Below the pieces are notes generated by a model. It had not been told where the DNA came from and ran no database searches. It saw only the letters and a list, made by a program, of their open reading frames with translations. This document shows positions 3,401 to 60,445 of a DNA stretch of 64,000 bases, in pieces (position 1 is the stretch's first letter; each line of letters starts with the position of its first letter). Origin of the DNA: an uncultured bacterium (GTDB lineage: Bacteria; Bacillota_I; Bacilli_A; RFN20; CAG-826); NCBI GenBank assembly GCA_949288485.1, contig CASEKC010000001.1:166241-230240 (forward strand). The letters run 5' to 3'. A program made the translations under genes and the position numbers.

Positions 3401-3443
3401 AGTTTTATCCTCGCTTTATCTTTATTTTTTTATCAAAATATTT

Positions 3444-4676
3444 TTATAAATCATCTTCATCTTCTCGATATTCTTCAACCTTTCTTTCAATAGGTTTTAT
3501 ATCGATTTTGGTTTCATCTTCTAAAGAACCTTTATAAACAGAAGTAAAGGCAATTGCTCCAAGAAGATTAATATCACCTGGTTCAAGAGCACCAATTGAA
3601 TCATTAGTAAAGAATTTTATTGGATTTGAAGAATGCAAACGATTAACAAATTCTTTAAATCCATTAAGTAAAGTTCCATTGCCAATAAAAACTAAAGGAA
3701 TATCTTCTTTTAAATTTCCATAGTCTTTAAGTAAATAATTAATTGAATTGGTAAATAATTTATCCCAATTATTTAAACATTCATCAACAACTTGAACAAG
3801 TTCATTTTTGTTATATTTTCTTTTAATTCCATCATCACCTAAAACTGATAAAATTGGAGCATTAAATTTAGTTTCTCTTAAATCATGCCCATAAATTATC
3901 TTTAATTCTTCAGCTTTATCCATCGAAATTTCAAAAGAATTAGCAATAGCGTTAGTTATATCATTTCCACCATTAGGGAAAGATGTCGAATCATAAAGTC
4001 TTCCATTACCAAAGAATGATACAGTTGTATTATCTTTGTTATAATCAACAAGTAAATATTTATCAAATGAAGATTTATTAATTTCTAAAAGAGAATTAAC
4101 TCCTAAAGGAGCAACGACGACTCTTTTAATTAAAATTCCGGCATCAGTGATTGCTTTTTTAAAATTTTCAACCATTACTTTAGGAAGTGTAAAAATATGA
4201 GCACTTACTAAAAGAGAATTTGAAAAATATCCTAAAGGTGGATCTTTATAAACTCGATTTCCTTCTAAAGAAAAAACATAAGGAATAATATCAACGATTT
4301 CATCATTTGGTTCATTAGTTCTTGCTTTTTTAATCATACTTAAAGCATTAGCAATATCGATTTTAGCAATTCTTCCATCACTAGAAATTGTATTAGTTGT
4401 TTTTTCATTAGAAAAAACTTTAAGACCAAAAGGAGGAAGAATTAATACTACTTCATTAATATCAACTCTTAATCTCTTTTTAGGATCTGAAATAACTTTT
4501 ATTTGTTTTAAATCTTCACTTAAAGAAGTTAAATCAAAAATGTCTCCATCTTTATTAGAGACTCTTAAAGGATATGTTCTTTTATAAAGAACATTAATTT
4601 TATTATCATATAAATAACCGATTAATAATTTAAAAGACGTATTTTTAATTTCTACGGCTGCAACTGTTATATCCAT
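3444..4676 (-). CDS. ftsA: cell division protein FtsA (start moved to MDITVAAVEI)
   Basis: Actin/Hsp70-fold FtsA sequence lies immediately upstream of ftsZ. The ORF-track start at 4715 adds 13 residues, and the internal ATG at 4676 aligns with the usual FtsA N-terminus. Confidence 0.85.
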   Translation of the reverse strand: MDITVAAVEIKNTSFKLLIGYLYDNKINVLYKRTYPLRVSNKDGDIFDLTSLSEDLKQIKVISDPKKRLRVDINEVVLILPPFGLKVFSNEKTTNTISSDGRIAKIDIANALSMIKKARTNEPNDEIVDIIPYVFSLEGNRVYKDPPLGYFSNSLLVSAHIFTLPKVMVENFKKAITDAGILIKRVVVAPLGVNSLLEINKSSFDKYLLVDYNKDNTTVSFFGNGRLYDSTSFPNGGNDITNAIANSFEISMDKAEELKIIYGHDLRETKFNAPILSVLGDDGIKRKYNKNELVQVVDECLNNWDKLFTNSINYLLKDYGNLKEDIPLVFIGNGTLLNGFKEFVNRLHSSNPIKFFTNDSIGALEPGDINLLGAIAFTSVYKGSLEDETKIDIKPIERKVEEYREDEDDL

Positions 4677-4771
4677 ACTATTAATAATTTTAATATGAAA
4701 ATATATAAAATACAATTAATAATATATATATTATTAATCAAAAATCACCTTAATTTTTACTTAAAAATAAA

Positions 4772-4810
4772 AAGCCAGATACTAATGAGAAATAAGTAGC
4801 TGGCTTTTTA
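4772..4810. terminator. hairpin terminator between the ftsL-like gene and ftsA
   Basis: aaaaAGCCAGatactaatgagaaataagtagCTGGCTttttt. Confidence 0.5.
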
Positions 4811-4862
4811 AAAAGGAAGAAATTATATGTGCAATAAGAATTATTTCGTCTTTAAAAGAGAA

Positions 4863-5090
4863 TTAAAATCTTTCTAAAGAATCTACTTCTTGATTATAAG
4901 ATTCTAAAGCGACTTCTCTTGATTCATTTCTTTCAATTTGTGGAAGAGAAACGATTGCTCTAACAATTGAAACTGGGATAGCAAAAAGAACAAATGCTCC
5001 TACAAAAGCACCACTGAAAATGCCAATCTTTTTTAAATAATAATAAATTTTTGAATGATTATTTCTATAAATTTTGTCTTTCATTTGCAT
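4863..5090 (-). CDS. ftsL: FtsL-like small bitopic division protein
   Basis: 75 aa with a single TM (FSGAFVGAFVLFAIPVSIV). It occupies the ftsL position directly after rsmH. Confidence 0.4.
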   Translation of the reverse strand: MQMKDKIYRNNHSKIYYYLKKIGIFSGAFVGAFVLFAIPVSIVRAIVSLPQIERNESREVALESYNQEVDSLERF

Positions 5091-5117
5091 AAATTGCTAT
5101 CTCCTTTTAAATAAAAC

Positions 5118-6056
5118 TTATAATTTTTTTAATATCCTTAATTTAGCGCTTTTACTTCTTCTATTTTCATTTATCTCTTCATTAGAAGGAGTAATTACTT
5201 TTTTATTAACTAATTCAAATTGAGCTTTTTTTATTTCATTAGGTAATAAATAATCATTTTTTCGATCGCCTTTAATAAATGAAACTTCTTTAAATTCATT
5301 TTTAACAATTCGATCTTCTAAAGAATGAAATGTAATAACGACAATTCGTCCATCTTTGTTTAATAAATTTAATGAATCATTTAAAGCAATTTTTAATACT
5401 CCAAGTTCATCATTTACTTCAATTCTTAATGCTTGAAATATTTTTTTAGCCGGATGCTTATCTTTAAACAATTCTTTTTTTGGTAAAGATTTTTTAATTA
5501 AATCAACTAATTCAAATGTTGTTTCAATTTCTTTTTCTTCTCTTGCTTTAATAATATTTTTAGCAATTGAATAAGAATATTTTTCTTCACCGTATTCTTT
5601 AAAAACTTTAACTAATTTTTCTAAAGGATAGGTATTAACAATTTTTTTAGCTGTCAAATTATTTTCTTGATTCATCCTCATATCAAGTGGAGCGTCATAT
5701 CGATATGAGAAACCACGATAATCTTCATCAAACTGTGGAGAGGAAACACCTAAATCGAATAAAATTCCATCTACTTTTGTAACTCCTCTTTTATTTAATT
5801 CTTCTTTTATATTTTTAAAATTAGAATAAATAATTTCGAAGTTATTTGAGATTGAAGCTAATTTTTCTTTGGAATATTCAATTGCTTCCTGATCTTGATC
5901 GAAACAATATAATTTACCATTTTTTAATTTTTTTAAGATTTCAGAACTATGTCCAGCTCTTCCTAGTGTCGCATCAACATAAATTCCATCTTCTCTAATA
6001 TTTAATCCTTCAATGGCTTCTTTTAGAAGGACACTCTTATGTTCGTTACTCTTCAT
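5118..6056 (-). CDS. rsmH: 16S rRNA (cytosine1402-N4)-methyltransferase RsmH/MraW
   Basis: Conserved YVDATLGRAGHS, FDLGVSS and VITFHSLEDRIVK motifs are present. It sits at the mraZ-rsmH position of the dcw cluster. Confidence 0.9.
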   Translation of the reverse strand: MKSNEHKSVLLKEAIEGLNIREDGIYVDATLGRAGHSSEILKKLKNGKLYCFDQDQEAIEYSKEKLASISNNFEIIYSNFKNIKEELNKRGVTKVDGILFDLGVSSPQFDEDYRGFSYRYDAPLDMRMNQENNLTAKKIVNTYPLEKLVKVFKEYGEEKYSYSIAKNIIKAREEKEIETTFELVDLIKKSLPKKELFKDKHPAKKIFQALRIEVNDELGVLKIALNDSLNLLNKDGRIVVITFHSLEDRIVKNEFKEVSFIKGDRKNDYLLPNEIKKAQFELVNKKVITPSNEEINENRRSKSAKLRILKKL

Positions 6057-6501
6057 TGCTAAATATCTTTTCAGCGTTTATTTCAAATTCATCATCGTTT
6101 GAAGATTCTTGATCATTCCATTTATTGAAATCCCAAATTTCGAAATGATCAATTGCTCCAAGGATATGAACTTTGCTTTCGATTCCAAATTTTTCTAATA
6201 CTTTAGAAGGAATAAGAATTCTTCCTTGATTATCTAAAGTAAGTTGAACAACTGAATCGAGGAAACTTCTAAGAGCTTTACGAACTTCGCTTTTTTCGTA
6301 GGATTTAGCTTGGTATTTAAGAACAACTTTTTGAAAGTCTTCTTCTTTGTAAATAGATAAGCAGCCATCAAAACCACGAGTAAGATAAACGTTTAAATCG
6401 TTTCCAATTTCTCCTCTGAATTTTGAAGGAATTACTAATCTCCCTTTGCTATCGAGATTGTAATCATAGCTTCCTATAAACATTCTCCCAAATTCCTCCA
6501 C
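6046..6501 (-). CDS. mraZ: division/cell wall cluster transcriptional regulator MraZ
   Basis: The duplicated MraZ fold is present: DxxxR motifs (LDSKGRLVIPSKFR and LDNQGRILIPSKVL). It is the first gene of the cluster. Confidence 0.9.
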   Translation of the reverse strand: MEEFGRMFIGSYDYNLDSKGRLVIPSKFRGEIGNDLNVYLTRGFDGCLSIYKEEDFQKVVLKYQAKSYEKSEVRKALRSFLDSVVQLTLDNQGRILIPSKVLEKFGIESKVHILGAIDHFEIWDFNKWNDQESSNDDEFEINAEKIFSNEE

Positions 6502-23444: not shown

Positions 23445-24449
23445 GTGAACGAAATTATATTAAAACAAGCTCAAAAATTTGAAAAAGAATATAAAGAAAT
23501 TCTTGAAAATATTAAAAAATTCGATAAAATCGCCGTTTTCAGACATATAATGCCTGATTTCGATGCATTAGGAACTCAATTTGGTTTAGCAACATGGCTT
23601 AAAGATAACTTTAAAGATAAAGATATTAAAATTTTAGGTGATAACCATGTTACTTTTACCCCAAAAGGATTATATCCAGAAACTGATAAAGTTAACGATT
23701 CATGGTTTAATGATGATTTTTTAGCAATTATTGTTGATGTTGGTGATGAAAAAAGAATTGCAGACCCAAGATTTAAACGTACTAAATTTACAATCAAATT
23801 AGATCATCATCCAGAAACAGATAAAATATTTAATATTTCGGTTGTTGATACATCTTTATGTGCAGCTAGTGAATTAGTAACAAATATGTTATTAAGTTTT
23901 GGTGAAGAATATACTTTAACTAAAGAAGCTGCATCATATTTTTATAGTGCAATTGTTGGAGATAGTGGAAGATTCTTATTCGGCTCTACTTCTCGTCATA
24001 CTTTTGAAATTTCTAGTGAATTATTAGCTAGAAATATCCAAATTGTTCCTTTATATGAAAAAATGTATGAAAAAGGAATTGACGATTTAAAATTCATGCA
24101 ATTCGTTTTAAACAATTTCAAAATCACACCTGAAGGAACAGCATATTATGTATTAACTCAAAAAGATTTAGATGAATTACATTTATCTAGTGAACAAGGA
24201 AAAGAACACGTCAATCTTTTCTCTTCAATTAAAGGTGTAAATATTTGGTGTTCTATCACCGAAGATGTTACTGAACCTTGCTTTAGAATTTCTTTAAGAA
24301 GTAGATATTATAATGTCAATGAAATCGCCACTAATTTTAAAGGTGGCGGACATAAACAAGCAAGTGGAGCTCAAATCGCTTCATTAAAAGAATTAGATAA
24401 ATTTATCGAAGCTTGCGACAATAAAATTAAAGAAGGTCAAAAATTATAG
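23445..24449 (+). CDS. nrnA: DHH/DHHA1 phosphoesterase (NrnA-like nanoRNase/pAp phosphatase)
   Basis: DHH motifs (AVFRHIMPDFDALG and DHH in KLDHHPE) and a C-terminal DHHA1 GGGH motif (FKGGGHKQASGA) are present. Confidence 0.8.
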   Translation: MNEIILKQAQKFEKEYKEILENIKKFDKIAVFRHIMPDFDALGTQFGLATWLKDNFKDKDIKILGDNHVTFTPKGLYPETDKVNDSWFNDDFLAIIVDVGDEKRIADPRFKRTKFTIKLDHHPETDKIFNISVVDTSLCAASELVTNMLLSFGEEYTLTKEAASYFYSAIVGDSGRFLFGSTSRHTFEISSELLARNIQIVPLYEKMYEKGIDDLKFMQFVLNNFKITPEGTAYYVLTQKDLDELHLSSEQGKEHVNLFSSIKGVNIWCSITEDVTEPCFRISLRSRYYNVNEIATNFKGGGHKQASGAQIASLKELDKFIEACDNKIKEGQKL

Positions 24450-47502: not shown

Positions 47503-47603
47503 TTTATAATCGGTATTTTTTTACCGACTCTTATTTTATAATAATTTTTAATTTTTTACAATAATTATTTAAATAAAAAAGCCCCTTTTTTAAAGGAACT
47601 AAT

Positions 47604-48023
47604 TTAAATTCTTTTTTTGAAATTTAATATAAAGCCACATAGTTGAATAAAATAAAAAACAAAAGTTAATATAACTATTATATTAAATATTTCTTTATGA
47701 GGAAAAGATGGAAAATTTAAATATATAAAAATAGTTTTTACGATTTCTACTACGATAAATGGTAATGAAATAAATAAGCTTTTTTTACTACTTCTACCTA
47801 AAGAAATAACTCTTAAAGAATAAATTGAATAAATAAAACTATATATATGAGAAAATACAGTAAAAATTAGTGCGGCCCATCCTAATGGAAAGGAAGTTTC
47901 AGTTAAAACACCTAATTGATGATTAAAAAGAGCATAAACTATTGTTCCTCCACCAACTAGAGCAACAATAATTAAGGCAATTGATCCGATTAATACTAAT
48001 ATTTCACCAAAAAATTTATTCAT
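47604..48023 (-). CDS. small polytopic membrane protein
   Basis: 139 aa with 4 TM segments. Confidence 0.4.
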   Translation of the reverse strand: MNKFFGEILVLIGSIALIIVALVGGGTIVYALFNHQLGVLTETSFPLGWAALIFTVFSHIYSFIYSIYSLRVISLGRSSKKSLFISLPFIVVEIVKTIFIYLNFPSFPHKEIFNIIVILTFVFYFIQLCGFILNFKKRI

Positions 48024-48028
48024 AAAGT

Positions 48029-49279
48029 TTATTTATTATCTTTTGTTTCGTCATTTTTATTTTCATCAGTTTTATTTAAACCTTTATCTTGATTATTTTT
48101 TTGAGATTGATCATTTTTTAAATCATTAAATTCACTTTCTTTATCTAAATCAACTTTGCCTTCTTTTAGCATATCGTGTACTTTTTTATTAAATTCTTCA
48201 AATTCTTTTGTAAATTTTTCCTCTTCTTCTTTAGAAGCAAACTTATGATGAGCAACTTCTTCACCAACAAATTTAGTTAAATCTTCACTGCTAACTTTTA
48301 AATAAAAATATCTAAATTTTTCAGCCATAAGCATATTAAAATCTAAAATAACAGGTATAAATGGTAAAAGAAGAAATACTGTAACAATCATTGCGGTTAA
48401 TGAATTTAAAATTGCTGAAGTATTTAAGAAGAAAAACATCAATAAATATGTAGCTGAAAAAATAACAAAACATGCTAAATAATATGGCCACATTATTAAA
48501 TGGAATTTTTTATTATAATTAAATTCTTTTATAGATAAAGCTCTTTTAATAGATTTGTTTAAGAAAAATGGAGCAATTGGAAAACTTCCATCGCCTTGCA
48601 TTGCATAATAATTTATAAAAGATCTAGCAAATTTATATAAAAAGAAATAAAAAGCAACACTTACAGCTATAAAATTAGAAATTCCTGAAATAAAATTAAT
48701 TAAATCCTGATATTTAAATAAAATCTGAGAAATTTGTTCATAATATAATTCATTCCCAAGCATTGTATTTACACTATTAAATTCTTTTAAGAAAAGTTGA
48801 ATTGGACTGTTTTCAATACTTTGTCCAATCCCAACAATTAAAGCAACTATAATAAATTCTAAAACTAAATAAATAAGATAAGAATATAAAAGCCATTTAA
48901 ACAATTGTTGTATATTCTTTATACCTCTTCTTTTTCCAATTCTTCTAGTACCAATAAAAGACATAATATTAACTTGCGAAGAATCTTTTGTTTCTAACGC
49001 CATATTATTTGCAAAAAATGAATAAAAAAATGGAGAAAGAAAATTTACTAAAAAATATAGGATTAATAAAAGTAAAACAAGGCCTAAAAAATCGCTAAAA
49101 ATAGTAGGCATATAAGTTAAAATTAATGCCATAAATAAATAAATGACAATTAAAATTAATGAAAGTAATGCGCTAAATTTTATAGTAAAATTGAAATTTT
49201 TAAGAAATTTTTGATAGACCTTTTTAATCATTTCCCTCGCTACCTTTACCATATAAACGATAAATTTCTTGAACAGCAA
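48029..49279 (-). CDS. polytopic membrane protein with a charged Lys/Glu/Asp-rich C-terminal tail; start may be the internal ATG at 49231
   Basis: About 8 TM helices followed by a roughly 90-aa low-complexity acidic/basic tail. The 5' end as given in the track overlaps the NERD gene by 56 nt. MIKKVYQ at 49231 removes the overlap. Confidence 0.45.
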   Translation of the reverse strand: MLFKKFIVYMVKVAREMIKKVYQKFLKNFNFTIKFSALLSLILIVIYLFMALILTYMPTIFSDFLGLVLLLLILYFLVNFLSPFFYSFFANNMALETKDSSQVNIMSFIGTRRIGKRRGIKNIQQLFKWLLYSYLIYLVLEFIIVALIVGIGQSIENSPIQLFLKEFNSVNTMLGNELYYEQISQILFKYQDLINFISGISNFIAVSVAFYFFLYKFARSFINYYAMQGDGSFPIAPFFLNKSIKRALSIKEFNYNKKFHLIMWPYYLACFVIFSATYLLMFFFLNTSAILNSLTAMIVTVFLLLPFIPVILDFNMLMAEKFRYFYLKVSSEDLTKFVGEEVAHHKFASKEEEEKFTKEFEEFNKKVHDMLKEGKVDLDKESEFNDLKNDQSQKNNQDKGLNKTDENKNDETKDNK

Positions 49280-49895
49280 CTTCTAAATTTTCTTGGTTTA
49301 TATCTTTAACTCTTTTATCTTTTTCTAACTCTTTAATAAGTTTTGGAAGTTTGTTTACAGAAATAATATAACTTCTTCTTGAATTTAAATCTTTAGGATT
49401 TTGAATAACACAATCATCATTAACTAAAATAATTGAAATAAATAAATCTTTATTTATTCCGGTTAAAGAAATTAATTTTTCAATTCTTGTTTTATTAATA
49501 ATCATTGGATTATGAATTTCAGTTCTACCGTTTTGTTTATTAAAAAATAACCAAACACTATCGCTTTTATTACCGCTAATAGCACCTTTATAAAAACGAT
49601 CTTTAATAACATAAATGTATTTACGTGCAAAAAGAATATGATCGATAGTTGCAACATTAACTTCTTTATTTCTTAAATGTACATTATTTAATAATAAATA
49701 ATCGTTTTTTTCTGCAATTGAATATATTTTTTTATGATATACATATCTAAAATTACGATACATATATTTTTTTCTAAAAATAGGATAAAGAATTGCTATT
49801 AAAAGAAGAGCAATTAATAAAATTGCTCCTATAACAGCTATAATAGTAATCGCAATCGTGCTATTTTCAGTTAAAACTACAAGATTTAAATTCAT
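49224..49895 (-). CDS. membrane-anchored NERD (nuclease-related domain) protein
   Basis: An N-terminal TM (IAITIIAVIGAILLIALLLIAIL) is followed by a NERD-like core (IDHILFARKYIYVIKDRFYKGAISG…WLFF…G…NP). Confidence 0.5.
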   Translation of the reverse strand: MNLNLVVLTENSTIAITIIAVIGAILLIALLLIAILYPIFRKKYMYRNFRYVYHKKIYSIAEKNDYLLLNNVHLRNKEVNVATIDHILFARKYIYVIKDRFYKGAISGNKSDSVWLFFNKQNGRTEIHNPMIINKTRIEKLISLTGINKDLFISIILVNDDCVIQNPKDLNSRRSYIISVNKLPKLIKELEKDKRVKDINQENLEVAVQEIYRLYGKGSEGND

Positions 49896-49917
49896 ATAAT
49901 AGATAATATTTTACTGT

Positions 49918-50625
49918 CTAATCAGCCATTGATAAAGCGAGTTTAAACATTTCGTTAAGTTTTGTTTGTCTTTCTTCTTGTGTTAAATCTTTTTCTTTAC
50001 CAACAAATGTATCAGATACTGTTAAAATACATAACGCTTTTTTATGTAATCTCATAGCATTTAAAAATAAACCATAAGATTCCATTTCAACACCTAAAAC
50101 ACCTAATGCTTGGAATTTTTTATAATAATCTTTATCAGCATCATAGAAAATATCACTAGAGAAAATAGGACCGACATGTACAGGAATATTCATCTCTTTT
50201 GCGTGATTATATGCTTTTAAAAGAAGTGAAAAATCTGAACAAGGTGAAATAACTCCACCTTTAAGATCAAATTGTGAAGCATAATTAGAATTTGATGAAG
50301 CACTTGTTGCTAAAATAACATCACCAACACGGCATTCTTCTTGGTAAGAACCACATGTTCCAATACGAATAATATTTTCAACACCATAGCAAGTATAAAG
50401 TTCATAAGAATAAATACCAATTGATGGAATTCCCATTCCACTTGCCATAACACTAATTTCTTTTCCCTCTTTTGTTTTACCTGTGTAACCATAAATTCCA
50501 CGTACAGAAGTAACTTCTTTATAATCAGTGAGGAAATTTTCAGCAATATATTTTGCTCTTAATGGATCTCCTGGCATTAAAACTGTTTTTGCAAAATAAG
50601 CATTGTCTTTAATATGTGTTGACAT
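49918..50625 (-). CDS. deoD: purine nucleoside phosphorylase, DeoD type
   Basis: VLMPGDPLRAKYIAENFL and SVMASGMGIPS motifs are present. Confidence 0.9.
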   Translation of the reverse strand: MSTHIKDNAYFAKTVLMPGDPLRAKYIAENFLTDYKEVTSVRGIYGYTGKTKEGKEISVMASGMGIPSIGIYSYELYTCYGVENIIRIGTCGSYQEECRVGDVILATSASSNSNYASQFDLKGGVISPCSDFSLLLKAYNHAKEMNIPVHVGPIFSSDIFYDADKDYYKKFQALGVLGVEMESYGLFLNAMRLHKKALCILTVSDTFVGKEKDLTQEERQTKLNEMFKLALSMAD

Positions 50626-50637
50626 AATTTTCTCCTT

Positions 50638-51273
50638 TTAATCAATAATTATTTTGTTTTTATCATCAATACTTTTAATTATTTCAATTAAATCTAAAGT
50701 ATTAATTTCTCCTTTAAATGTTGATTTATCAAGATTCAAGATTTCTTCTTTTTTTAATTCTTTAAATCTTTCGTTTTTTATTTTATCAATTTTACTTTCA
50801 AAAATTAATAGATATTCCGGTAATGAATAAAATGTATTCCCATTAGTTAAACATTTACGGTGCTTCATCATAATAAGTTTTGGCTTTTTTAATAAATGTA
50901 TATCTTTTTCTTTCAAAATTTCATTAATTTTGTCATTGATTTTATGATTAATATCAATTAAAGAATTTATTATTTCAAATTCATTTTTATCATTTTTAAA
51001 TAATAAATAATTTTCTTCATCATCTTTAAATAGCAATACAATTCTTAAAACTGGTGAAGGATAGTAATCTTTATAAAAGAAATTTATTCTAGAAAAATTA
51101 ACATTTTCAAAATAATTTAACTCATTCATTAATTCTTCTTCAAGCTTTATGATTAAGTTTTCTTTTTTTGAAACATCTTCTTCTAGTTTATAAAGTTGAA
51201 TCAATGATAATTCTTTGAGTAAAAAATTATATAATTCAAGATTCTTTTTTTCGTTCATAATTAATTTAATCAC
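50638..51273 (-). CDS. hypothetical Lys/Glu-rich protein, co-transcribed after cdaA
   Basis: 211 aa with no recognisable motif. Its start overlaps the cdaA stop region. Confidence 0.35.
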   Translation of the reverse strand: MIKLIMNEKKNLELYNFLLKELSLIQLYKLEEDVSKKENLIIKLEEELMNELNYFENVNFSRINFFYKDYYPSPVLRIVLLFKDDEENYLLFKNDKNEFEIINSLIDINHKINDKINEILKEKDIHLLKKPKLIMMKHRKCLTNGNTFYSLPEYLLIFESKIDKIKNERFKELKKEEILNLDKSTFKGEINTLDLIEIIKSIDDKNKIIID

Positions 51274-52078
51274 TACTATCGCTAGTTAATGACATAATAT
51301 TTTCAAATGCAGTAAAGAAGTTATCAGCACTATAACTTTCAAGTTCGCCATTATAAGCAATTGAAATTCTTCCAGTTTCTTCACTAACAACTACTGTTAC
51401 AGCATCGCATATTTCGCTAATTCCAATAGCTGCTCTATGTCTAGAACCATATTTACCAACAAGAGGTTTTGTTGTAGGGGTATAATAAACGCTTGCTGCC
51501 ATTATTTTGTTGTCTTTAATAACTACTGCTCCATCATGAAGTCTTGTTCCTGGATAAAAGATAGTAATTAATACTTCAAAAGAAACAGGACAATTAATAA
51601 TTGTTCCATTTTTTACGATATCTGATAATTTATCTTTTCTTTCAAAAGTAATTAAGGCACCAATTTTATGTTTAGATAAATATAAAACAGTTTCATTGAT
51701 TGTTTTATAAAGTTCATCATGATCAAAAATACGTTCAACTTCACCTTTTTTCTTAGCAATAATCTTATCATTCTTTTTTTGAGAAGATTTATTTGCAATA
51801 AATGTTCGAAGTTCAGCAAGATTTATAAAAAGACCAACGAAAGCAACTAAAAATATAACTAAAAGTGAAAATAATTGTAATCCATCAAAGCATAAAATAT
51901 GAGAAATAAAGAAAATTCCTGATGATATACCTAATGAAATTTGAATTAACTTTCTTTTAACAAAATAATCGACAATGAAATTAATCAATCCTAAAGTTAA
52001 AGCAACAAAAACACAATCTAAAATAGCATTGACTGTCAATTCATCAAAAACTGTTTTAAATTGTAATAAGTTAATCAT
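51266..52078 (-). CDS. cdaA: diadenylate cyclase CdaA (c-di-AMP synthase)
   Basis: N-terminal TM helices are followed by a DAC domain (GALITFE…RLHDGAVVI…GSRHRAAIGISE…TVVVSEETG). Confidence 0.85.
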   Translation of the reverse strand: MINLLQFKTVFDELTVNAILDCVFVALTLGLINFIVDYFVKRKLIQISLGISSGIFFISHILCFDGLQLFSLLVIFLVAFVGLFINLAELRTFIANKSSQKKNDKIIAKKKGEVERIFDHDELYKTINETVLYLSKHKIGALITFERKDKLSDIVKNGTIINCPVSFEVLITIFYPGTRLHDGAVVIKDNKIMAASVYYTPTTKPLVGKYGSRHRAAIGISEICDAVTVVVSEETGRISIAYNGELESYSADNFFTAFENIMSLTSDSSD

Positions 52079-53501
52079 GTTTATTCCCTTCTTTCTTTAA
52101 AATTTCTCTTGCAATATAAACACCATTTGCACCAGCTTGAGCTAAGCCTCTTGTAATTCCCGCTCCATCTCCACCAACATATAATCCATGAATAGCGGTT
52201 TCAAAATTATTATCACATTCTATTCGATCACTATAGAATTTAGCTTCAACACCATAAAGCAATGTGCTTCCTCCGGCAATACCGGGAGTAACATGATCTA
52301 ATGCTTCAAGCATTTCAATAATTGATTGCATAGTTTTATAAGGTAAGACAAGAGCTAAATCACCAGGAACTGCTTCTTTTAATGTCGGAATAACGAAATT
52401 ATCATTAATTCTTTTATATGTTGAACGTCTTCCTTTAATAATATCGCTATATCTTTGCACAATAACGGAACCATTTGATAGTTTATTAGCTAAAGAGGCA
52501 ACCTCATAAGCATATCCATTCGCATCTTTAAATGGCTCAGTAAATTTATGCGAAACTAAAATAGCAAAGTTAGTATTTTCGCTTTTTAATGATGGGTCAC
52601 TATAAGCATGACCATTAGCAACCATAATTCCATTATTATTTTCAATAACAACATGTCCCGAAGGATTTGAGCAGAATGTTCTACACGTTGTTCCTACAGT
52701 TGTTTTGAAAATAAATTTTCCTTCATATAAATATTTATTGATATCCGTCATAATAACATCATTAGTTTCAACTCTAACTCCAATATCAACTCTATTAGAA
52801 GAAACTTTTAATCCATGTTTACTTAAAACACTACTTAGCCAACTTGAGCCAGGCCTTCCAACTCCAAAAACAACATATTTAGAGAAATATTCATTTCCTT
52901 TAGAGTCGATAATACCTTTAATTTCGTTATTTTCGCCTACGATAATATCAGTAACATCGCAAACAAACTTCATATCAATATTCTTTTTAAGTTCTTCAAA
53001 AATAGAAGCCAAAAGTTTTAAATTAACTTCTGTGCCTAAATGTCTAACTTGACTTCTTAAAAGTTTTAAACCAACAGCAATACCTTTTCTCTCGATATCT
53101 AAAACTTCTTTTGTTGAAGGATCAGTAATAAATGTAGGCGCGCCATGATCTAAATTTATCTTATCAACATATTGAATTAAATCTAAAATTTGTTCTTTAG
53201 ATAAATATTCATTAAGCCATCCGCCAAATTCACTTGTAATATTAAATTTACCATCACTATATGCACCACAACCTCCAAATCCATGGGTCATTGAACAAGC
53301 TGGGTAACACCCACTATTCCCGTAAATATCAGAAGGACATTGTTTGACTTTCCCATTTAATATTGGACAAGTGCGGTGATAAATGTCATTACCTTTATCA
53401 ACTAATAATATTTTCAAAGAAGGATTATTCTTAACAAGTTCATATGAAGCATAAATTCCACATGGACCTGCTCCAACTAAAATTACATCATATTTATTCA
53501 T
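52071..53501 (-). CDS. FAD-dependent oxidoreductase (COG2509/HI0933-like family)
   Basis: An N-terminal FAD dinucleotide-binding motif DVILVGAGPCG and a C-terminal GLYVGGDGAG motif are present. Confidence 0.7.
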   Translation of the reverse strand: MNKYDVILVGAGPCGIYASYELVKNNPSLKILLVDKGNDIYHRTCPILNGKVKQCPSDIYGNSGCYPACSMTHGFGGCGAYSDGKFNITSEFGGWLNEYLSKEQILDLIQYVDKINLDHGAPTFITDPSTKEVLDIERKGIAVGLKLLRSQVRHLGTEVNLKLLASIFEELKKNIDMKFVCDVTDIIVGENNEIKGIIDSKGNEYFSKYVVFGVGRPGSSWLSSVLSKHGLKVSSNRVDIGVRVETNDVIMTDINKYLYEGKFIFKTTVGTTCRTFCSNPSGHVVIENNNGIMVANGHAYSDPSLKSENTNFAILVSHKFTEPFKDANGYAYEVASLANKLSNGSVIVQRYSDIIKGRRSTYKRINDNFVIPTLKEAVPGDLALVLPYKTMQSIIEMLEALDHVTPGIAGGSTLLYGVEAKFYSDRIECDNNFETAIHGLYVGGDGAGITRGLAQAGANGVYIAREILKKEGNKHD

Positions 53502-53550
53502 ACAAATAAATTATAGGTTAAAAGGGCTATTTTTTTAAGTTTTTTTTACT

Positions 53551-53637: not shown

Positions 53638-54708
53638 TTATAAACTATAAGAAGTATTATATACAAAACTAGTAACAGGGTTATTTCCAATTACTGAACC
53701 ACTTGCTTCCATTATTTCAATAGTTGAAGTCATATCCACAATAAAAGGCGCTGCTTCTTCTTCGATTGGTTGTTCTATAAAATTAAATAATTTAAAACAA
53801 TTAAAAGGTTCAGAATTTTGGCTAACATATGGTTCATTATTACTATATGGATTTAAAAAAGTAACTTCGTTATATCCATAAGTAAGAAAATCGCTCCAAT
53901 ATTTAAACTCTACACAACCTGGATACATATAATGGCTACCTTCGATATAACAAGAATTATTATGAGTTAATCCACAATCTAAATAAAAATTAAATTGTTC
54001 TTCTGGATCTTCTCCATCATCATTCCCATAAGGAAGAACATCCCGTAAATTAAGGTTTTCTTTTGAAAAAAATACTTCGTTTTTAAAATGTTTATATCTT
54101 AACTTTTTATTATTTTGATTTAAAAAAATTTTATAAATATCTCCTAAAGCATAATCTTTAGTATCTTCGTATGTTTTTACAATATTTCCAAAACAATTAC
54201 TTATTATTCTCCCAAAATTATTATTATTTTTATCTAATGATATTAAGTTCCTTTTTGAAAAAACTTTTTCCCGGTTTCCAATAAAATTCATTGTAACAGG
54301 ACCATTTAATAAATAAGGATCATGCGGATTCGTAATTTCTTCAATTAATTCATCTAAAGAAGTTGCAGACATTTCATCACTTCCAAAAAAGGATCCGTTT
54401 TTAATCACACCATTTTCAATATATTTAAAGGTTCCTAGTTCTTCTAAATATATATAATTTTCATTATTTTTACTAAAACTATTCTCCTTTTTATCATTAA
54501 ATAGAAAACAATCATCATTAAAAAAAATTTCATATCCTTCTTTATCAAGCGAACCAAAAGTTTTTGATTCATATAAATTATATTTTTTTATTAATTCATC
54601 AAACGTGAATTCATTTGTTTCTAAATTTGGGGTTGAACTACAACCTGTTAGATATAAAGAAATGAGTAAAAATAAAAATTTATTTAATATTTTTCTTTTC
54701 ATAAACAA
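53638..54708 (-). CDS. lipoprotein, unknown function
   Basis: A signal peptide with lipobox LTGC (MFMKRKILNKFLFLLISLYLTGCSS) is present. Its start overlaps the upstream XRE gene by 29 nt. Confidence 0.6.
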   Translation of the reverse strand: MFMKRKILNKFLFLLISLYLTGCSSTPNLETNEFTFDELIKKYNLYESKTFGSLDKEGYEIFFNDDCFLFNDKKENSFSKNNENYIYLEELGTFKYIENGVIKNGSFFGSDEMSATSLDELIEEITNPHDPYLLNGPVTMNFIGNREKVFSKRNLISLDKNNNNFGRIISNCFGNIVKTYEDTKDYALGDIYKIFLNQNNKKLRYKHFKNEVFFSKENLNLRDVLPYGNDDGEDPEEQFNFYLDCGLTHNNSCYIEGSHYMYPGCVEFKYWSDFLTYGYNEVTFLNPYSNNEPYVSQNSEPFNCFKLFNFIEQPIEEEAAPFIVDMTSTIEIMEASGSVIGNNPVTSFVYNTSYSL

Positions 54709-55186
54709 CCGTCCTTATTAAAAGTCCTAAAAATACAAAAAAAGCTATAAAAAAAAGAATAAAGAAAACTTTAAAAATAATTAATTCTAGAGTTTTCCAG
54801 CTAATATACCACCATAAAACTTCTAAAGATTGATATTCTTTCACATAAATAGGATTATAAATTGAATATATTATTTCGAATATTAATACTGCAAAACTTA
54901 AAAGACATCCGCTCAAAAATGAATATGAAATTATTTTAATTCGAACTAACTCTTTATCCTTATTAAAATTAGATTTTAAGGCTTCCCCAATAAATTCTTC
55001 ATATGAAACATTAAACGTTGTTAATATTCTATTTAAAATATAAATATCGATTGTTCTACTACCTTTTTCATATCGGCATAAAGAGCTTCTTGATATGCCA
55101 AGTTTATCAGCCAAAGCTTCTTGAGAAAGATTATTTTTTATTCGTAATTCTGTGATTTTATGACCGATAATTTCATTTGTTAGCAT
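54680..55186 (-). CDS. XRE-family HTH regulator with C-terminal transmembrane segments
   Basis: An N-terminal Cro/C1-type HTH (LRIKNNLSQEALADKLGISRSSLCRYEKG) is followed by 2-3 TM helices. Confidence 0.65.
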   Translation of the reverse strand: MLTNEIIGHKITELRIKNNLSQEALADKLGISRSSLCRYEKGSRTIDIYILNRILTTFNVSYEEFIGEALKSNFNKDKELVRIKIISYSFLSGCLLSFAVLIFEIIYSIYNPIYVKEYQSLEVLWWYISWKTLELIIFKVFFILFFIAFFVFLGLLIRTVVYEKKNIK

Positions 55187-55352
55187 ATTTCTATTTTAAT
55201 GAAGAAATACATTTTTTCAATGATCTTTATCTAACTAATTTGAATTTCCATTTGGACACAAATAAAATCAAAAAAAGTGACAAATAGGTACATCACAAAA
55301 TTAAAAAATAATGATAATTTGAAAATGTAATATATTTCAAGGGGGACATAAT

Positions 55353-56132
55353 ATGTTTACAAAAATCGGCATTATTGCTTCCGCTGTTTTGAGCATTTCT
55401 ACTTTAAGTCAAAATGTTATCAACAAAAAATTAGAGGCAACTTCAAACGAGATTAATAAAGCCGAAAACGAAATTATTTCACAAAACTATTCTGGCTTTG
55501 ATACTGATGATTATGAAGATGAAATTAAAACAAACTTAATTAGTTATTATGAAAATCATACTTCATATGTTTCTCCAGTCGTTTTAAAACAACTAAAAAA
55601 TTATTTATATGATAATGATTATAGTTTTATCAAATATGATTCAATCTCGCCAAATTCTATAGGTAATCGTTTAGATTTAATGTTTGATAAATTTGACGGA
55701 GGCGGAGGCGGTTCTTCTTCACAAACTTTAAAGCCAATTTCAGGTTATACCACATCAAATATTTCGGCAAATTAAACTTCAAGTATTAATGGCAAGGTTT
55801 TTGTCGGATTTACTTTAACTAAAGAAAGTGCAGTTGCTTTTTATAATTCAGTCTATTCAATATTTAATACCGTAACCGATATCTATTCTAATATAAGCGA
55901 ATCATTACCATATTTTCTTGAGGTTGCTGTTACATCAATAGCATCTAAACTTAACTTGTTAATTGCAGCGTTACCTACCGCTTTAAAGGTCATCGTTGCT
56001 GTGGTTGCAGTTGGTTTAGCATTAATTGTTGCTATAATTGCATGGTTTGGATATCATGAAAAAGGATTCTATATTGGTTTATTAAGAAACGGCTTCTTAA
56101 ATTGGACTTTTGAATGTGGCACAATAGAATAA
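55353..56132 (+). pseudogene. secreted/membrane-anchored protein gene interrupted by one in-frame TAA (55773-55775)
   Basis: ORF 55353-55775 has an N-terminal signal-like segment and a GGGGGSSS linker. In the same reading frame it continues after the TAA for 118 more codons to a TAA at 56130. The continuation has no ATG and ends in a C-terminal TM anchor (ALKVIVAVVAVGLALIVAIIAWFGY). Confidence 0.45.
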
Positions 56133-56144
56133 AGGTGATTATTT

Positions 56145-57074
56145 ATGAAACTTAAAAATTATCATCTAAGAAATATTGTTTTTATAATTATATTATTAGA
56201 TTTATTTACATTATTTAATTCAATTGTTCCTTTTTATTATCTTGACGCGGCAAGATTATTAATTTATTTATTTCAATTTTTAATAATATTAACATTAGCA
56301 AGACATTTTTATTTCTATATTAAAATAAATAATAAGATGCATTTATTAAAAGATAATTATTTTAAATTATTTTTAATATTATCTATTATACTTTTTAGCT
56401 ATGTAATAATTATAAATACTATTCTTTCTTTTATCTTAAAAGGAGGATTTAATCTTTTAGCGGTTTTAATTAATTTATTACTTCTTTTAATACATAATAT
56501 CTTTTTCTTATATTTCTATAAGAATAAGATATATAATGTAAATACTGAAGAATTTAATTTTCTAATTTTAAGAAATTCCTTTAAAAATGATAATGATGAA
56601 TATAATTTAAATCATCTTAAAGAAATAAGATTAATTAGGTTAATCTCTTCTTTATTCCCATTTATATTTTCTTTTGTTATAACTTTTATTATTTTAGCAG
56701 TTGAAATAAATACTTCAATTTTAAGTTTAACTATTATTGGTTCAATTTCTTTTTTATTTCTTATTGGATTATTTATTTTTAATTTTATTTATAATGAAAA
56801 ACATCAAATATTTAAAAGATCTAAATTAATTATATCTTATATTGTTAAAGCTCTTCTTTTAGCTCTTTTAATCTTAATAACTTTTTACTATAAAGAAAAT
56901 TACTTATCTGAAGCACTTGTTTCAATAGAAAATAATAATGAATTTTATCTATTTACATCTTTATTTGCATTAGCTTTTGCTCTTGTTTATCAATTATTTA
57001 ATTATGTATTATCTTCAATGAATTATTATGATGAATCATATATAAGGTATTTAATTAGAAACAACAAAAAATAA
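56145..57074 (+). CDS. polytopic membrane protein, very AT-rich and Ile/Leu/Phe/Asn-rich
   Basis: 309 aa with 7 or more TM helices. It starts 12 bp after the interrupted gene and has no recognisable family motif. Confidence 0.45.
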   Translation: MKLKNYHLRNIVFIIILLDLFTLFNSIVPFYYLDAARLLIYLFQFLIILTLARHFYFYIKINNKMHLLKDNYFKLFLILSIILFSYVIIINTILSFILKGGFNLLAVLINLLLLLIHNIFFLYFYKNKIYNVNTEEFNFLILRNSFKNDNDEYNLNHLKEIRLIRLISSLFPFIFSFVITFIILAVEINTSILSLTIIGSISFLFLIGLFIFNFIYNEKHQIFKRSKLIISYIVKALLLALLILITFYYKENYLSEALVSIENNNEFYLFTSLFALAFALVYQLFNYVLSSMNYYDESYIRYLIRNNKK

Positions 57075-57305
57075 TCTTCTTTATAAATAAATAAAATTTT
57101 AATGAATATAAATTCGATGATTATTTATCTTTTTTTAACAAAGTTATATGACAAATATTTAAATAAGTAATAAATTAACTAGCTATATCTTTTATAAAAA
57201 AAGCATCAGCTTCTTTTAAAAATAAAAAAATAAGTTTACTTTATTTATTATTTCTTTTTTATCATCGATTTATTTATTAATTATTAATTTTTACTAATTT
57301 TAATT

Positions 57306-57554
57306 ATGGAAGTTAGTTACTTAACAATTAATAATTCTTTAGATTTTACTATTTTGAAAGATTTTAATTATTATTCTTTAATTTTCGTTATTTTAATTAT
57401 ATTTATTTATATTATTAAATGTTTATTAATAATAAACTTATTATTAGTTAAAAAGAACGAATTATTTAATAAAAAATTTTGGGTGATTTTTAAAGAAACT
57501 TTGACTAAGATGTGGTATATTAATTTAGTGATTTATGGAATTTTCAAAATATAA
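57306..57554 (+). CDS. possible small single-TM protein
   Basis: 82 aa with one TM helix. It overlaps the start of the SpoU gene by 20 nt and could be a spurious AT-rich ORF. Confidence 0.2.
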   Translation: MEVSYLTINNSLDFTILKDFNYYSLIFVILIIFIYIIKCLLIINLLLVKKNELFNKKFWVIFKETLTKMWYINLVIYGIFKI

Positions 57555-58275
57555 AAAAATATACGATTACTCATATACTTTAGGAGCCTTCCCAACAATA
57601 GAACTTATCAACAATAAACCCGAAAATGTTTTAAAAATTTTAATTCATTCTTCTTTTAAAAACGAAGAAGTATTAAACAATATTTTTATAAAATTACCTA
57701 AAGAAAAAGTTGAAATCACTTCTTCTAATAAAATTTTTAATATTTTAAGCGATAAAGAAAATGTTTTTATCATAGGTTTTTTTAAAAAATATCATACAAA
57801 TTTAGATAATAATGATGACCATATATTATTAGATAATCCTTCAAATATGGGAAATCTAGGAACAATGATACGTTCATCTCTTGGTTTTAACATTAAAAAT
57901 ATTGCAATTATTACACCAGGTGTTGATTATTTTGATCCAAAAGTTATCCGTTCATCAATGGGATCTATTTTTAGTGTAAATATAGAATATTTTAATTCAT
58001 TAAAAGAATATAAAGAAAAATATAAAAATCACATTATTTATTCTTTTATGTTACAAACTGATAAATATTTGGATAACTATAAATTTAATTTTAAAAAAGA
58101 CTTATATTCAACACTTGCTTTTGGAAACGAAGCAACAGGTTTAAATTATGATTTATATAAAAATGAAAATCCTATAAAAATTAACATTTCTTCAAAAATA
58201 GATTCTTTAAATATTACTAACGCATTAACAATCGCAACTTATGAGTTCGATAAACAAAAAAGGAATAATAAATAA
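57535..58275 (+). CDS. SpoU/TrmH-family RNA 2'-O-methyltransferase with N-terminal L30e-like domain (RlmB/Tsr-type architecture), accessory copy
   Basis: SpoU motifs 1-3 are present (NMGNLGTMIRSSLGF; LAFGNEATGLN; INISSKIDSLNITNALTIATYEF) with an N-terminal ~70-aa substrate-binding-like domain. Confidence 0.7.
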   Translation: MEFSKYKKIYDYSYTLGAFPTIELINNKPENVLKILIHSSFKNEEVLNNIFIKLPKEKVEITSSNKIFNILSDKENVFIIGFFKKYHTNLDNNDDHILLDNPSNMGNLGTMIRSSLGFNIKNIAIITPGVDYFDPKVIRSSMGSIFSVNIEYFNSLKEYKEKYKNHIIYSFMLQTDKYLDNYKFNFKKDLYSTLAFGNEATGLNYDLYKNENPIKINISSKIDSLNITNALTIATYEFDKQKRNNK

Positions 58276-58278
58276 ATT

Positions 58279-59082
58279 ATGAAGTTTGTTAACGAAAAAA
58301 AGGTTTATTCAATGTTTGAAGTTACAAAAGCTTCATCTTTTTCTAGAAATTTTCTTTTAGAATTAGAAGAAAATAATTTAATCGAGCCTTATTTTAAAGA
58401 CAAAAATACATCGTATCGATATTATGATGAAACAATTTTTATTAAATTAAATGAAATTAAAACTTTATTAAATGCTGGATTAAGTAAAAACGAAATAAAA
58501 GAATACTATATAAATAACGATTTAGATGATGAGTCATTATTAAAAAAAGAAAATAAAGAAAAAATTATCCGATCATTAAAAAATAAAAAAGATGATATTG
58601 ATACATCTTTGCTCTTTTTATCATCCTTAGTTAATAAAACTTATAAAAAGAAAATGGATGAAATTGTTTATTATTATGAAGAAAGAAACATTAATAATGT
58701 TAATCTTATTTCTCCATTATTAAAAGAAATCTATATACATGCTTTAGCAAAAAATTATTGTTTCTCTTCTTTTCCACCATTCGTTTTATTCCCTAAAACA
58801 TTATTAAACGATGAAAACAATGATATTTTTTCAAACGGAACTAACTATATAAAGGTAAAAATTTGTATACCTTTAATTAGAAAATATGATGAAAAAAATA
58901 TTGAATCTCTACAAAAAAATATCTCTTTAATTTATGAAATTAACAAAACTTCTTTTTTAAATGCGTTTAAAAATTTTCAAAATATTGTTAAAAATAATCC
59001 TTCAAACGATTTTTTATATCTTTTCTTTTTAAATAATGAAAAATTAAAAATTCATAAATTTATCATGCCTATAAATATCTAA
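58279..59082 (+). CDS. MerR-family HTH regulator with a ~190-aa C-terminal putative ligand-binding domain
   Basis: An N-terminal MerR HTH (YSMFEVTKASSFSRNFLLELEENNLIEPYFKDKNTSYRYYDETIFIKLNEIKTLLNAGLSKNEIKEY) is present. The start is 4 nt after the SpoU stop. Confidence 0.6.
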   Translation: MKFVNEKKVYSMFEVTKASSFSRNFLLELEENNLIEPYFKDKNTSYRYYDETIFIKLNEIKTLLNAGLSKNEIKEYYINNDLDDESLLKKENKEKIIRSLKNKKDDIDTSLLFLSSLVNKTYKKKMDEIVYYYEERNINNVNLISPLLKEIYIHALAKNYCFSSFPPFVLFPKTLLNDENNDIFSNGTNYIKVKICIPLIRKYDEKNIESLQKNISLIYEINKTSFLNAFKNFQNIVKNNPSNDFLYLFFLNNEKLKIHKFIMPINI

Positions 59083-59161
59083 ATAATAAATTTAATTTGA
59101 TTTTCTTTTTTTATTTCTTCTATGATTATTAAACTTAATTTTAATATCAGGAGGAAAAAAG

Positions 59162-60325
59162 ATGAACGATATCGCAAATATTTCATTATTAGAGAACTTG
59201 GTCTTAGATAAACTTATACCAGTTACTGATGAAGAAGGGAATATCCTTTTCTTTACTTTAAAAAGAAAAAAAGAAAATAGAGAGAATATTTCTTTTACCT
59301 CAAATTCTTTTACTAATCAAAGTCAAACAAATAACTTTAACATTTTTATATCTTCTAATAGTTTTACTCCAAATAAAATAGAAAAGAAAATTGATGAATC
59401 TATTAAAAATATTTCTTCATTTAAAATTCGCTATTTAAATTATAAACGCACAGATTATTCAGAAACTTATTTATATACTATTGATAATAAAATTGATATT
59501 TATATTATTCCTTCATTTAATAATTTAACTGAAAATTTATTTTCTTTAAATTTTGTTGAAAGATTTAGAAAACTTGTTCAGCTTAAAGATTATGAGACTA
59601 AATATAAAAATTCAGTTCTTTATATATTAAAAGATATGATTAATTATGCTCGAAAAATTAATATTATTAATAGTGAAGAAAGAGATAACTTAATTGAATT
59701 TGTTAAACCATTTAAAGAAGTAAAAATTAATTATTATAAGCCAATAAGAAATCGCTATACTTCATATAAAGATTTTTTAAAACTTATAACAAATATCGAT
59801 GATTATAACGATAAAGTTTTATTTCGTTTATTATATTTTTCAGGGTTAAGAATCGGAGAATTTTTAGGAGTTCAAATAAAAGATATTCGTTTTAAGAAAA
59901 ATATTGCATATGTTCATATTTATAAACAAAAATTATCAATGAATGGAACCATTACAAAAAGATTAAAAAACCTTTCTTCTTATAAAGTAATCATATATAC
60001 ACATGAAAATTGTGAAATTTTAAAAGAATATATTTCTAGAAACATTTTAAAAGGTGAAGATTTTTTATTTGATACATATCGAGTAAAAATACAACGAAAA
60101 CTTGATAGATATCTAAAAAAAGCAAAACTAAAACACAATTCATTACATGGTTTTGGAAGAAAATCAATCAATACAGAACTTTATAAAATTGGTGCTGATA
60201 GTAAAGTTAGAACTACTCTTCTTGGACAAACTTCTACTCAAATCAATGAACAAAATTATATTGATAAAGAGGTTGCTTTAAAAAAAGCGATTAGATTTTT
60301 AGATGATATTCCTAATCAAATATAA
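59162..60325 (+). CDS. int: tyrosine recombinase / phage-type integrase
   Basis: The C-terminal catalytic domain carries box I Arg (LLYFSGLRIGEFLGVQIKDIRF), an HxxR box (HSLHGFGRKS) and a C-terminal Tyr region (LLGQTSTQINEQNYID). The N-terminal SAM-like domain is AT-rich. Confidence 0.8.
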   Translation: MNDIANISLLENLVLDKLIPVTDEEGNILFFTLKRKKENRENISFTSNSFTNQSQTNNFNIFISSNSFTPNKIEKKIDESIKNISSFKIRYLNYKRTDYSETYLYTIDNKIDIYIIPSFNNLTENLFSLNFVERFRKLVQLKDYETKYKNSVLYILKDMINYARKINIINSEERDNLIEFVKPFKEVKINYYKPIRNRYTSYKDFLKLITNIDDYNDKVLFRLLYFSGLRIGEFLGVQIKDIRFKKNIAYVHIYKQKLSMNGTITKRLKNLSSYKVIIYTHENCEILKEYISRNILKGEDFLFDTYRVKIQRKLDRYLKKAKLKHNSLHGFGRKSINTELYKIGADSKVRTTLLGQTSTQINEQNYIDKEVALKKAIRFLDDIPNQI

Positions 60326-60371
60326 ATAAAATAAAAAAATTATATCAAATTTATGATATAATTTTTTATGT

Positions 60372-60445
60372 GCCTCATTAGTTCAGTGGCAGAACACCAG
60401 CTTCCCAAGCTGGCTACACGGGTTCGATTCCCGCATGGGGCTCCA
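60372..60445 (+). tRNA. tRNA-Gly (anticodon CCC)
   Basis: The cloverleaf was folded by hand: acceptor GCCTCAT/ATGGGGC with one G-U pair, D-arm GTTC/GAAC, anticodon stem CCAGC/GCTGG with loop TTCCCAA, T-loop TTCGATT, discriminator U and an encoded CCA. It closely resembles Firmicutes tRNA-Gly. Confidence 0.85.

Follow-up and report, generated by a model that had tools for sequence, protein, structure and literature searches.

This study concerns three adjacent genes on the minus strand of a 64,000-nucleotide stretch of DNA from an uncultured bacterium of the Bacilli (NCBI GenBank assembly GCA_949288485.1, contig CASEKC010000001.1), which is referred to throughout, in its full length, as the window. 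The first gene encodes a membrane-anchored protein with a nuclease-related (NERD) domain and is called the NERD gene below; it is followed by a gene for a polytopic membrane protein (MID, the middle gene) and by a shorter one for a second membrane protein (SMALL). NERD and MID are inherited vertically as a translationally coupled pair whose housekeeping surroundings are fixed, and SMALL is a young addition confined to the window's clade. Judged from the alignment of the family, both glutamates of the canonical NERD active site are lost in every member, and the lysine usually is as well. An earlier note on this DNA had taken the three genes for an insertion into an otherwise metabolic neighbourhood and had associated NERD with defence and stress; the distribution of the family largely refutes that reading, and what we describe here is very probably a core gene pair and not a defence system. 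The three genes are located as follows:

49224 to 49895, minus strand: NERD gene, 223 amino acids (aa), membrane-anchored NERD-family protein
48029 to 49231, minus strand: MID, 400 aa, protein with six transmembrane (TM) segments
47604 to 48023, minus strand: SMALL, 139 aa, about four TM segments

A coupled gene pair of vertical descent

The three open reading frames (ORFs) are genuine genes under purifying selection, because the ratio of non-synonymous to synonymous substitutions (dN/dS) relative to the nearest species (locus L013) is 0.07 for NERD, 0.19 for MID and 0.15 for SMALL; deoD and cdaA, two genes lying upstream, have ratios of 0.01 and 0.05 against that species. These ratios refer to the L013 pair only, dS being saturated in more distant pairs. 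Relatives were collected in a one-genome-per-species scan that returned 116 relatives of the NERD gene, the best 80 of which were analysed as species loci, and ORFs were called in 91 loci in all and classified by means of iterated profiles. All 80 species loci derive from metagenome-assembled genomes labelled Bacilli, Mollicutes, Ca. Onthovivens or Erysipelotrichaceae, and the carriers of the pair belong to an uncultured lineage of gut Bacilli with small genomes of low guanine-plus-cytosine content. The neighbours of the NERD gene are distributed over the species loci in the following way:

deoD immediately upstream of NERD: 62 of 80
cdaA within 2.5 kb upstream of NERD: 60 of 80
MID immediately downstream of NERD: 69 of 80
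Glu-tRNA synthetase gene (gltX) within 3 kb downstream of NERD: 57 of 80
SMALL downstream: 7 of 80
rex downstream: 7 of 80

Counting only the 72 loci with enough downstream sequence, MID follows NERD in 62, to which L051 adds a positional analogue. The gltX gene was identified by its HIGH and KMSKS-type motifs together with a PF00749 match, and none is present in the window. From these neighbour counts it follows that the ancestral order is cdaA, x206 (a Nudix-like gene), deoD, NERD, MID, gltX, and that SMALL together with rex-adhE is a derived state of the window's clade. The supposed insertion between rex-adhE and deoD has thus to be read with reversed polarity: it is the deoD-NERD-MID arrangement that is ancestral and SMALL with rex-adhE that is clade-specific, and the pair does not interrupt a metabolic neighbourhood but is at home in it. 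The co-occurrence of the three genes elsewhere, on which the earlier note had let its proposal depend, is widespread for NERD and MID, whereas the full trio is restricted to the window's clade.

At the junction between the two genes, the MID start falls between -20 and +15 nt from the NERD stop in every one of the 80 pairs. In the window the two coding sequences share 8 nt, from the MID ATG to the NERD stop (ATGATTAA). A Shine-Dalgarno-like GAGGG sits inside the NERD coding sequence just 5' of this ATG; the longest MID ORF would extend over 48029-49279 from a TTG at 49279, but gene callers and homolog alignments favour the ATG at 49231. SMALL starts 5 nt past the MID stop. A reciprocal test that started from MID, using six metagenome loci obtained through the MID alignment and four from divergent MID representatives, found NERD directly upstream in 10 of 10 loci, such that MID is a dedicated partner encountered nowhere but beside NERD. 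Across the relatives the identities of NERD (96 down to 36%) and MID (82 down to 23%) drop in step with those of neighbouring genes (deoD, 99 down to 56%), which is what vertical descent predicts. The exact NERD protein comes back, with its synteny unchanged, in numerous metagenome assemblies from the gut, and neither the window nor any of the loci fetched showed a second copy of the NERD gene.

These observations bear directly on the proposal that the trio is a new membrane-associated anti-phage, anti-plasmid or stress system composed of a NERD nuclease and two membrane partners. NERD domains do occur in PglW, MAD6 and ZwsA, and a strain-variable island with an integrase lies about 4 kb upstream. 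However, the gene pair occupies a fixed housekeeping position across 80 species genomes with a vertical pattern, quite unlike the patchy distribution of a mobile island, and its third gene is present in only seven of them; the strain-variable DNA sits on the integrase side, upstream of the operon, and stops before it. No relatives of the NERD family were found in the viral contigs of IMG/VR, phage records yielded a single weak match, and plasmids carry canonical NERD proteins only, at 25-28% identity. As a 223-aa single-domain protein, the NERD protein reaches the threshold of no defence model: the NCBIfam models score 21.4 bits against a cut-off of 460 for MAD6 and 11.5 against 990 for PglW, and PADLOC returns PglW alone in a sub-threshold local match of 13.2 bits. 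The catalytic glutamates, moreover, are gone, and the window itself is ordinary chromosome, carrying ftsZ, ftsA, rsmH, pheST, polA, dnaE, pfk, pyk, thrS and glycogen genes. We consequently regard a defence function as highly improbable. Part of what the earlier note had named as fatal to its own proposal has indeed been found, namely that NERD is a widely conserved syntenic gene of this lineage, though not one with a known housekeeping role.

The NERD protein: fold, topology and a departed active site

The protein matches the NERD family (PF08378) above its gathering score (34.2 versus 22.1 bits, E=4e-8), residues 61-153 aligning with profile positions 14-105 of 111, and the precomputed PF08378 annotation is present in all close homologs. 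The modelled domain adopts the restriction-endonuclease-like alpha/beta fold of the PD-(D/E)xK type, and where it matches Can2 and Card1 by fold, the match is to the nuclease domains of these proteins and not to their CARF domains. Searched by sequence against solved structures, the protein retrieves only RecU, at E=0.2.

A strongly hydrophobic N-terminal 19-mer (family mean hydropathy 3.3) marks a TM helix at about residues 14-37. Among the 83 distinct NERD family members on which the topology and active-site counts are based, the 15 residues before the helix contain a mean of 0.7 lysines and arginines and the 15 after it 4.0, the excess following the helix in 82 of 83. The protein is consequently predicted, by the positive-inside rule, to have its N-terminus outside and its C-terminus inside, with a cytoplasmic NERD domain. 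The surface or membrane nucleases of Mollicutes that scavenge nucleotides, such as MnuA, carry their nuclease domain outside the cell. An extracellular scavenging nuclease of this kind was considered and set aside on the grounds of the predicted topology, which is a prediction only.

Canonical NERD domains are characterised by the signature E...D...E-x-K, represented in ZwsA by the mutated residues E535, D567, E580 and K582. Four canonical plasmid NERD proteins, the founding pXO1 protein included, display it as 'GE...IDH...VIETK' or 'VIEQK'. In the window protein the corresponding residues are H54 in place of the first glutamate, I-D85-H86, and V-I-K98-D99-R100 in place of E-x-K, such that D85 alone, accompanied by H86, is retained. 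Across the family, position 54 is tyrosine, glycine or histidine; position 98 is lysine, leucine, isoleucine, threonine or another non-acidic residue, aspartate or glutamate occurring in 0 of 83; and position 100 is arginine in 56 and lysine in only 19. Since these positions depart from the canonical signature, the canonical two-glutamate metal chemistry is excluded. Five residues, D85, H86, K92, D112 and E191, show little or no variation, and D99 is near-conserved.

The pattern leaves room for an active membrane-tethered nuclease with a remodelled site, which would most plausibly act on RNA in processing or decay, with MID as its scaffold or regulator. RNase Y is a membrane-anchored enzyme with which such a putative NERD ribonuclease would be comparable. 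The predicted PD-(D/E)xK fold is intact, D85-H86 is kept alongside the family's own invariant K92, D112 and E191, and the neighbouring deoD and Nudix-like genes handle nucleoside and nucleotide breakdown; the two NERD domains studied functionally in this respect, those of ZwsA and TbLrRP2, point to RNA, and TbLrRP2 is itself a TM-anchored NERD ribonuclease. Nevertheless, both metal-binding glutamates are missing in 83 of 83 members, and the near-conserved D99 occupies the x of E-x-K, where it should point away from the site, and is replaced by cysteine, serine or threonine in 15 of 83. On balance we regard a remodelled nuclease as unlikely.

MID and SMALL

In MID six hydrophobic segments precede a C-terminal tail of about 100 aa that is E/K-rich and coiled-coil-like. 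Lysine and arginine abound at the N-terminus and in every other loop, as expected of loops on the cytoplasmic side, and the pattern indicates a topology with both termini inside. The family is small, comprising 52 clusters among 1.84e9 representatives. MID has no relative in Pfam, NCBIfam or the PDB and no likeness to any transporter family; a sequence search against solved structures retrieved keratin coiled coils only (E of at least 0.25), and a Pfam scan of 39 MID homologs revealed no common family. One of these 39 (P0054, at 4001-5248 of locus L102) gave a borderline match of its charged C-terminal tail to MG280 (PF23067; 27.8 versus 27.4 bits), which is probably compositional but constitutes a possible lead to a Mycoplasma protein family.

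SMALL comprises three strong TM segments and a weaker one. Its profile matches 18 of the 91 loci, corresponding to the 7 species loci, all within the window's own clade, and a relaxed search found no relatives outside it. In L027 a 148-aa ORF with four TM segments that follows MID was considered as a relative and turned out to be unrelated (E=1). The earlier note thus described the three proteins correctly, from the N-terminal helix and NERD core of the first through the charged tail of the second to the four TM segments of the third.

It could be argued that MID and SMALL have no functional connection with NERD and are, for instance, a transporter or a structural membrane protein whose gene happens to lie in the same operon. 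In agreement with this notion, NERD occurs without MID in about nine species loci, SMALL is clade-restricted, and MID diverges much faster than NERD (23-42% versus 36-65% identity). Yet MID was never found away from NERD in the MID-ascertained loci, the overlapping or near-abutting arrangement of stop and start is maintained down to 23% MID identity, and MID resembles no transporter family. Mere cohabitation of an operon is accordingly an improbable account of the pair.

The operon and its surroundings

Upstream of the trio, and on the same strand, four further genes follow one another with overlaps or gaps of no more than 22 nt. The elements bordering and preceding the three genes are:

47533 to 47593, after the hairpin: promoter-like hexamers for rex
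47580 to 47600, minus strand: terminator-like hairpin with T-run, directly 3' of the SMALL stop
49918 to 50625, minus strand: deoD, purine nucleoside phosphorylase, directly upstream of the NERD gene
50638 to 51258, minus strand: x206, degenerate Nudix-like protein of 206 aa, between cdaA and deoD
51266 to 52078, minus strand: cdaA, diadenylate cyclase
52071 to 53501, minus strand: gene for a flavin adenine dinucleotide-dependent protein

The hairpin was found by consensus scan and sequence reading, and the hexamers rest on the same two approaches only; the hairpin is the probable end of the transcription unit. The best promoter-like site for the upstream genes and the trio in the consensus scan is located at 53510-53538, and the trio is probably the distal end of a seven-gene operon co-transcribed from this site, in keeping with the earlier note's picture of two membrane proteins co-oriented with NERD. 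A second promoter-like sequence, TTATCA-16-TAAAAT at 49908-49935 (minus strand), lies within the end of deoD about 13 nt 5' of the NERD ATG, which is preceded by no visible Shine-Dalgarno motif; this consensus match makes a near-leaderless NERD-MID-SMALL transcript from an internal promoter possible.

The x206 protein has no Pfam match and shares 25% identity (pairwise E=1e-9) with a Nudix_N plus NUDIX protein in the same slot of L102. It resembles a Nudix protein that has degenerated, its Nudix box eroded, and that accompanies cdaA in the place usually taken by cdaR; it is kept beside cdaA in 60 of the 80 species loci. Elsewhere the window encodes (23445-24449, plus strand) a DHH/DHHA1 protein of 334 aa and NrnA/Pde2 type, which is a candidate for the phosphodiesterase that acts on pApA or cyclic di-AMP (c-di-AMP) as the counterpart of the cyclase.

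A role in the homeostasis of a nucleotide second messenger, whether by binding c-di-AMP as an effector, by regulating CdaA or by acting as a novel phosphodiesterase at the membrane, would explain why NERD resides in the cdaA operon. Its tight same-strand packing with cdaA and the Nudix-like gene in those 60 loci, the fact that the usual cdaR and glmM partners were not seen in the operon, and the membership of NERD in a phosphodiesterase superfamily speak in its favour. Against this, one clade (L053-L066) has deoD-NERD-MID-gltX without cdaA nearby, the window already holds the DHH/DHHA1 candidate, and the NERD protein has no sequence or fold likeness to a known c-di-AMP receptor or phosphodiesterase, the Can2 and Card1 matches being to nuclease domains. 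We consider a second-messenger function to have little probability.

Several further observations concern the genes around the operon. In L010/L011 (2925-9342), both from a single related species, three to four large proteins (1068, 217, 735 and >398 aa) with faint collagen-repeat matches are encoded after the trio and replace rex-adhE. In L053, L054, L056, L059 and L066 a 149-aa TM protein, RDD-like by eye, is encoded directly upstream of deoD-NERD-MID (e.g. L054 6813-7259), with cdaA elsewhere; L101 carries a separate Pfam-annotated RDD gene downstream of gltX. The strain-variable island extends over approximately 53638-60442, adjoins a tRNA gene at 60372-60442 and ends before the trio operon; it contains a tyrosine integrase (59162-60325), a SpoU-type methylase, a helix-turn-helix regulator and a lipoprotein-like ORF of 356 aa, and its 53.6-57.1 kb part is missing from some strains (L004, L005).

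The dcw cluster at 2237-6501 (minus strand) has rsmH (5118-6056), ftsA (3444-4715) and ftsZ (2237-3400) adjacent to one another, with no mur, pbp or ftsW gene between them, in a Mollicutes-like manner; a 151-aa ORF upstream of rsmH (6046-6501) is probably mraZ. Because mur, pbp and ftsW genes are absent from the cluster, the lineage may be without a peptidoglycan wall.

A proposed membrane complex around a non-canonical NERD module

The reading that we favour is that of a conserved, constitutive membrane complex built around a non-canonical and probably non-catalytic NERD module, a proposition that we consider evenly balanced between right and wrong. We infer that NERD and MID, joined by SMALL in the window's clade, would form this complex. 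The part of the NERD fold in it would be non-catalytic, or in any case non-canonical, and would consist in binding nucleic acid or a nucleotide or in docking another protein; its own helix and MID would together keep it at the membrane, and the cytoplasmic loops and coiled-coil tail of MID would supply the remaining interaction surface. By analogy, the nearest functional counterpart would be SmdA, a morphogenesis and division factor with a TM helix and a partly degenerate NERD domain.

A number of points weigh against this reading. NERD is found without MID in about nine of the 72 species loci with enough downstream sequence, and MID is hence not obligatory. The catalytic residues of PD-(D/E)xK enzymes are known to relocate. 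The invariant D85, H86, K92, D112 and E191 could build a remodelled active site, inactivity being something that we only infer. Synteny in small genomes need not mean a functional link to cdaA, deoD or gltX. The analogy with SmdA is weak, as the family is by its sequence not orthologous to it (14-21 bits over about 45 residues), and coordination of peptidoglycan synthesis in the manner of SmdA may not apply, given that the dcw cluster appears to be without mur or pbp genes.

A bolder version, which we find decidedly doubtful, would make NERD-MID a core machine in the membrane of gut Bacilli that are wall-less or reduced, one that has so far been overlooked. In it, a site rebuilt from D85, H86, K92, D112 and E191 would act at the membrane on a nucleotide messenger or on RNA, with the six-TM protein controlling it. 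Were it true, the cdaA, Nudix-like and deoD operon would be functionally tied to membrane or division processes.

NERD domains are widespread, yet functional data exist for few proteins, namely SmdA, TbLrRP2 and ZwsA. In the NERD-MID family nature supplies a clean example of a membrane-anchored NERD protein that is encoded on the chromosome, passed on vertically and devoid of the canonical glutamates, yet still under purifying selection; as such it provides a route to a non-nuclease function of the NERD domain, with a bearing on SmdA too. It is also of value for annotation, covering two or three genes that a little-studied gut lineage keeps in its conserved core, and it cautions annotation pipelines that a NERD match alone is no evidence of a defence system.

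Comparison with known NERD proteins

The best full-length match of the family is to short plasmid-encoded proteins exemplified by pXO1-01 of B. anthracis (WP_000453399), a B. cereus plasmid protein (WP_000453396) and the NERD proteins of IncHI1/IncHI2 plasmids. These are 212-243 aa in length and have the same architecture, consisting of an N-terminal hydrophobic helix, the NERD domain and a short helical C-terminus. The family profile scores 50-59 bits against them over positions 12-201, BLASTP reports 29% identity over 196 aa (E=2e-13), and the IDH, Y-x-G, W, NP and C motifs are common to both. The pXO1-01 type retains the catalytic E...D...E-x-K ('GE', 'IDH', 'VIETK'/'VIEQK'), is plasmid-borne and has no MID-like neighbour, whereas the window family is degenerate, chromosomal, syntenic and paired with MID. 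Sequence comparison shows the NERD protein to descend from this classical group of short, membrane-anchored proteins typified by pXO1-01, to which the family is nearer than to SmdA.

SmdA of S. aureus (SAOUHSC_01908) is a TM-plus-NERD morphology determinant important for division and morphology; it localises to the septum, is important for growth and interacts with EzrA and PBPs. Like the window protein it is anchored by a TM helix near the N-terminus, of which only a short stretch lies outside, and has its NERD domain in the cytoplasm; its gene, too, is chromosomal and conserved within a lineage of Bacilli. In S. aureus the NERD domain of SmdA is also partly degenerate ('ISH...IIDSQ'), whereas basal Staphylococcaceae keep 'GE...IDH...DSK', and H145, which matches H86 here, is conserved and functionally important. 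SmdA differs in its length of 302 aa, in a spacer of about 85 residues between TM helix and NERD domain, in a distinct conserved C-terminus (FHGR motif) and in being monocistronic without a MID partner; in the window protein the helix ends at about residue 37 and the NERD domain begins at about 60, leaving no spacer. Compared with SmdA sequences taken from the machine-read text of Fig. S1 of the original paper, in which residues 206-264 are missing, the family profile scores 14-21 bits across about 45 residues at profile positions 54-103 only. Orthology was rejected on account of this restricted core match and the lack of a spacer, and SmdA is, as judged by sequence, an analogue and not an orthologue.

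In Trypanosoma brucei, TbLrRP2 requires an intact NERD domain for rRNA processing, is an inferred endonuclease and needs both its TM domain and a partner. It resembles the window protein in its single-TM anchor and in working with a membrane-anchored partner, but its TM domain is C-terminal. ZwsA of Pseudomonas, which cleaves RNA in vitro, is by contrast a soluble multidomain defence effector. TbLrRP2 depends on five conserved charged NERD residues and ZwsA on the four named above, residues that are largely missing in the window family. PglW (BREX/Pgl) and MAD6 (MADS) are large kinase fusions of 600-1400 aa situated in defence islands, and the likeness is limited to a weak local match in the NERD core at the far sub-threshold scores given earlier.

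The earlier note had called a short membrane-tethered NERD protein with two co-oriented membrane partners an undescribed system, and the exact trio is indeed undescribed in the literature searched; a short NERD protein tethered to the membrane, on the other hand, was already known from pXO1, IncHI and SmdA. The membrane-anchored short NERD protein is thus an established archetype, and what is new here is a degenerate chromosomal family paired with MID.

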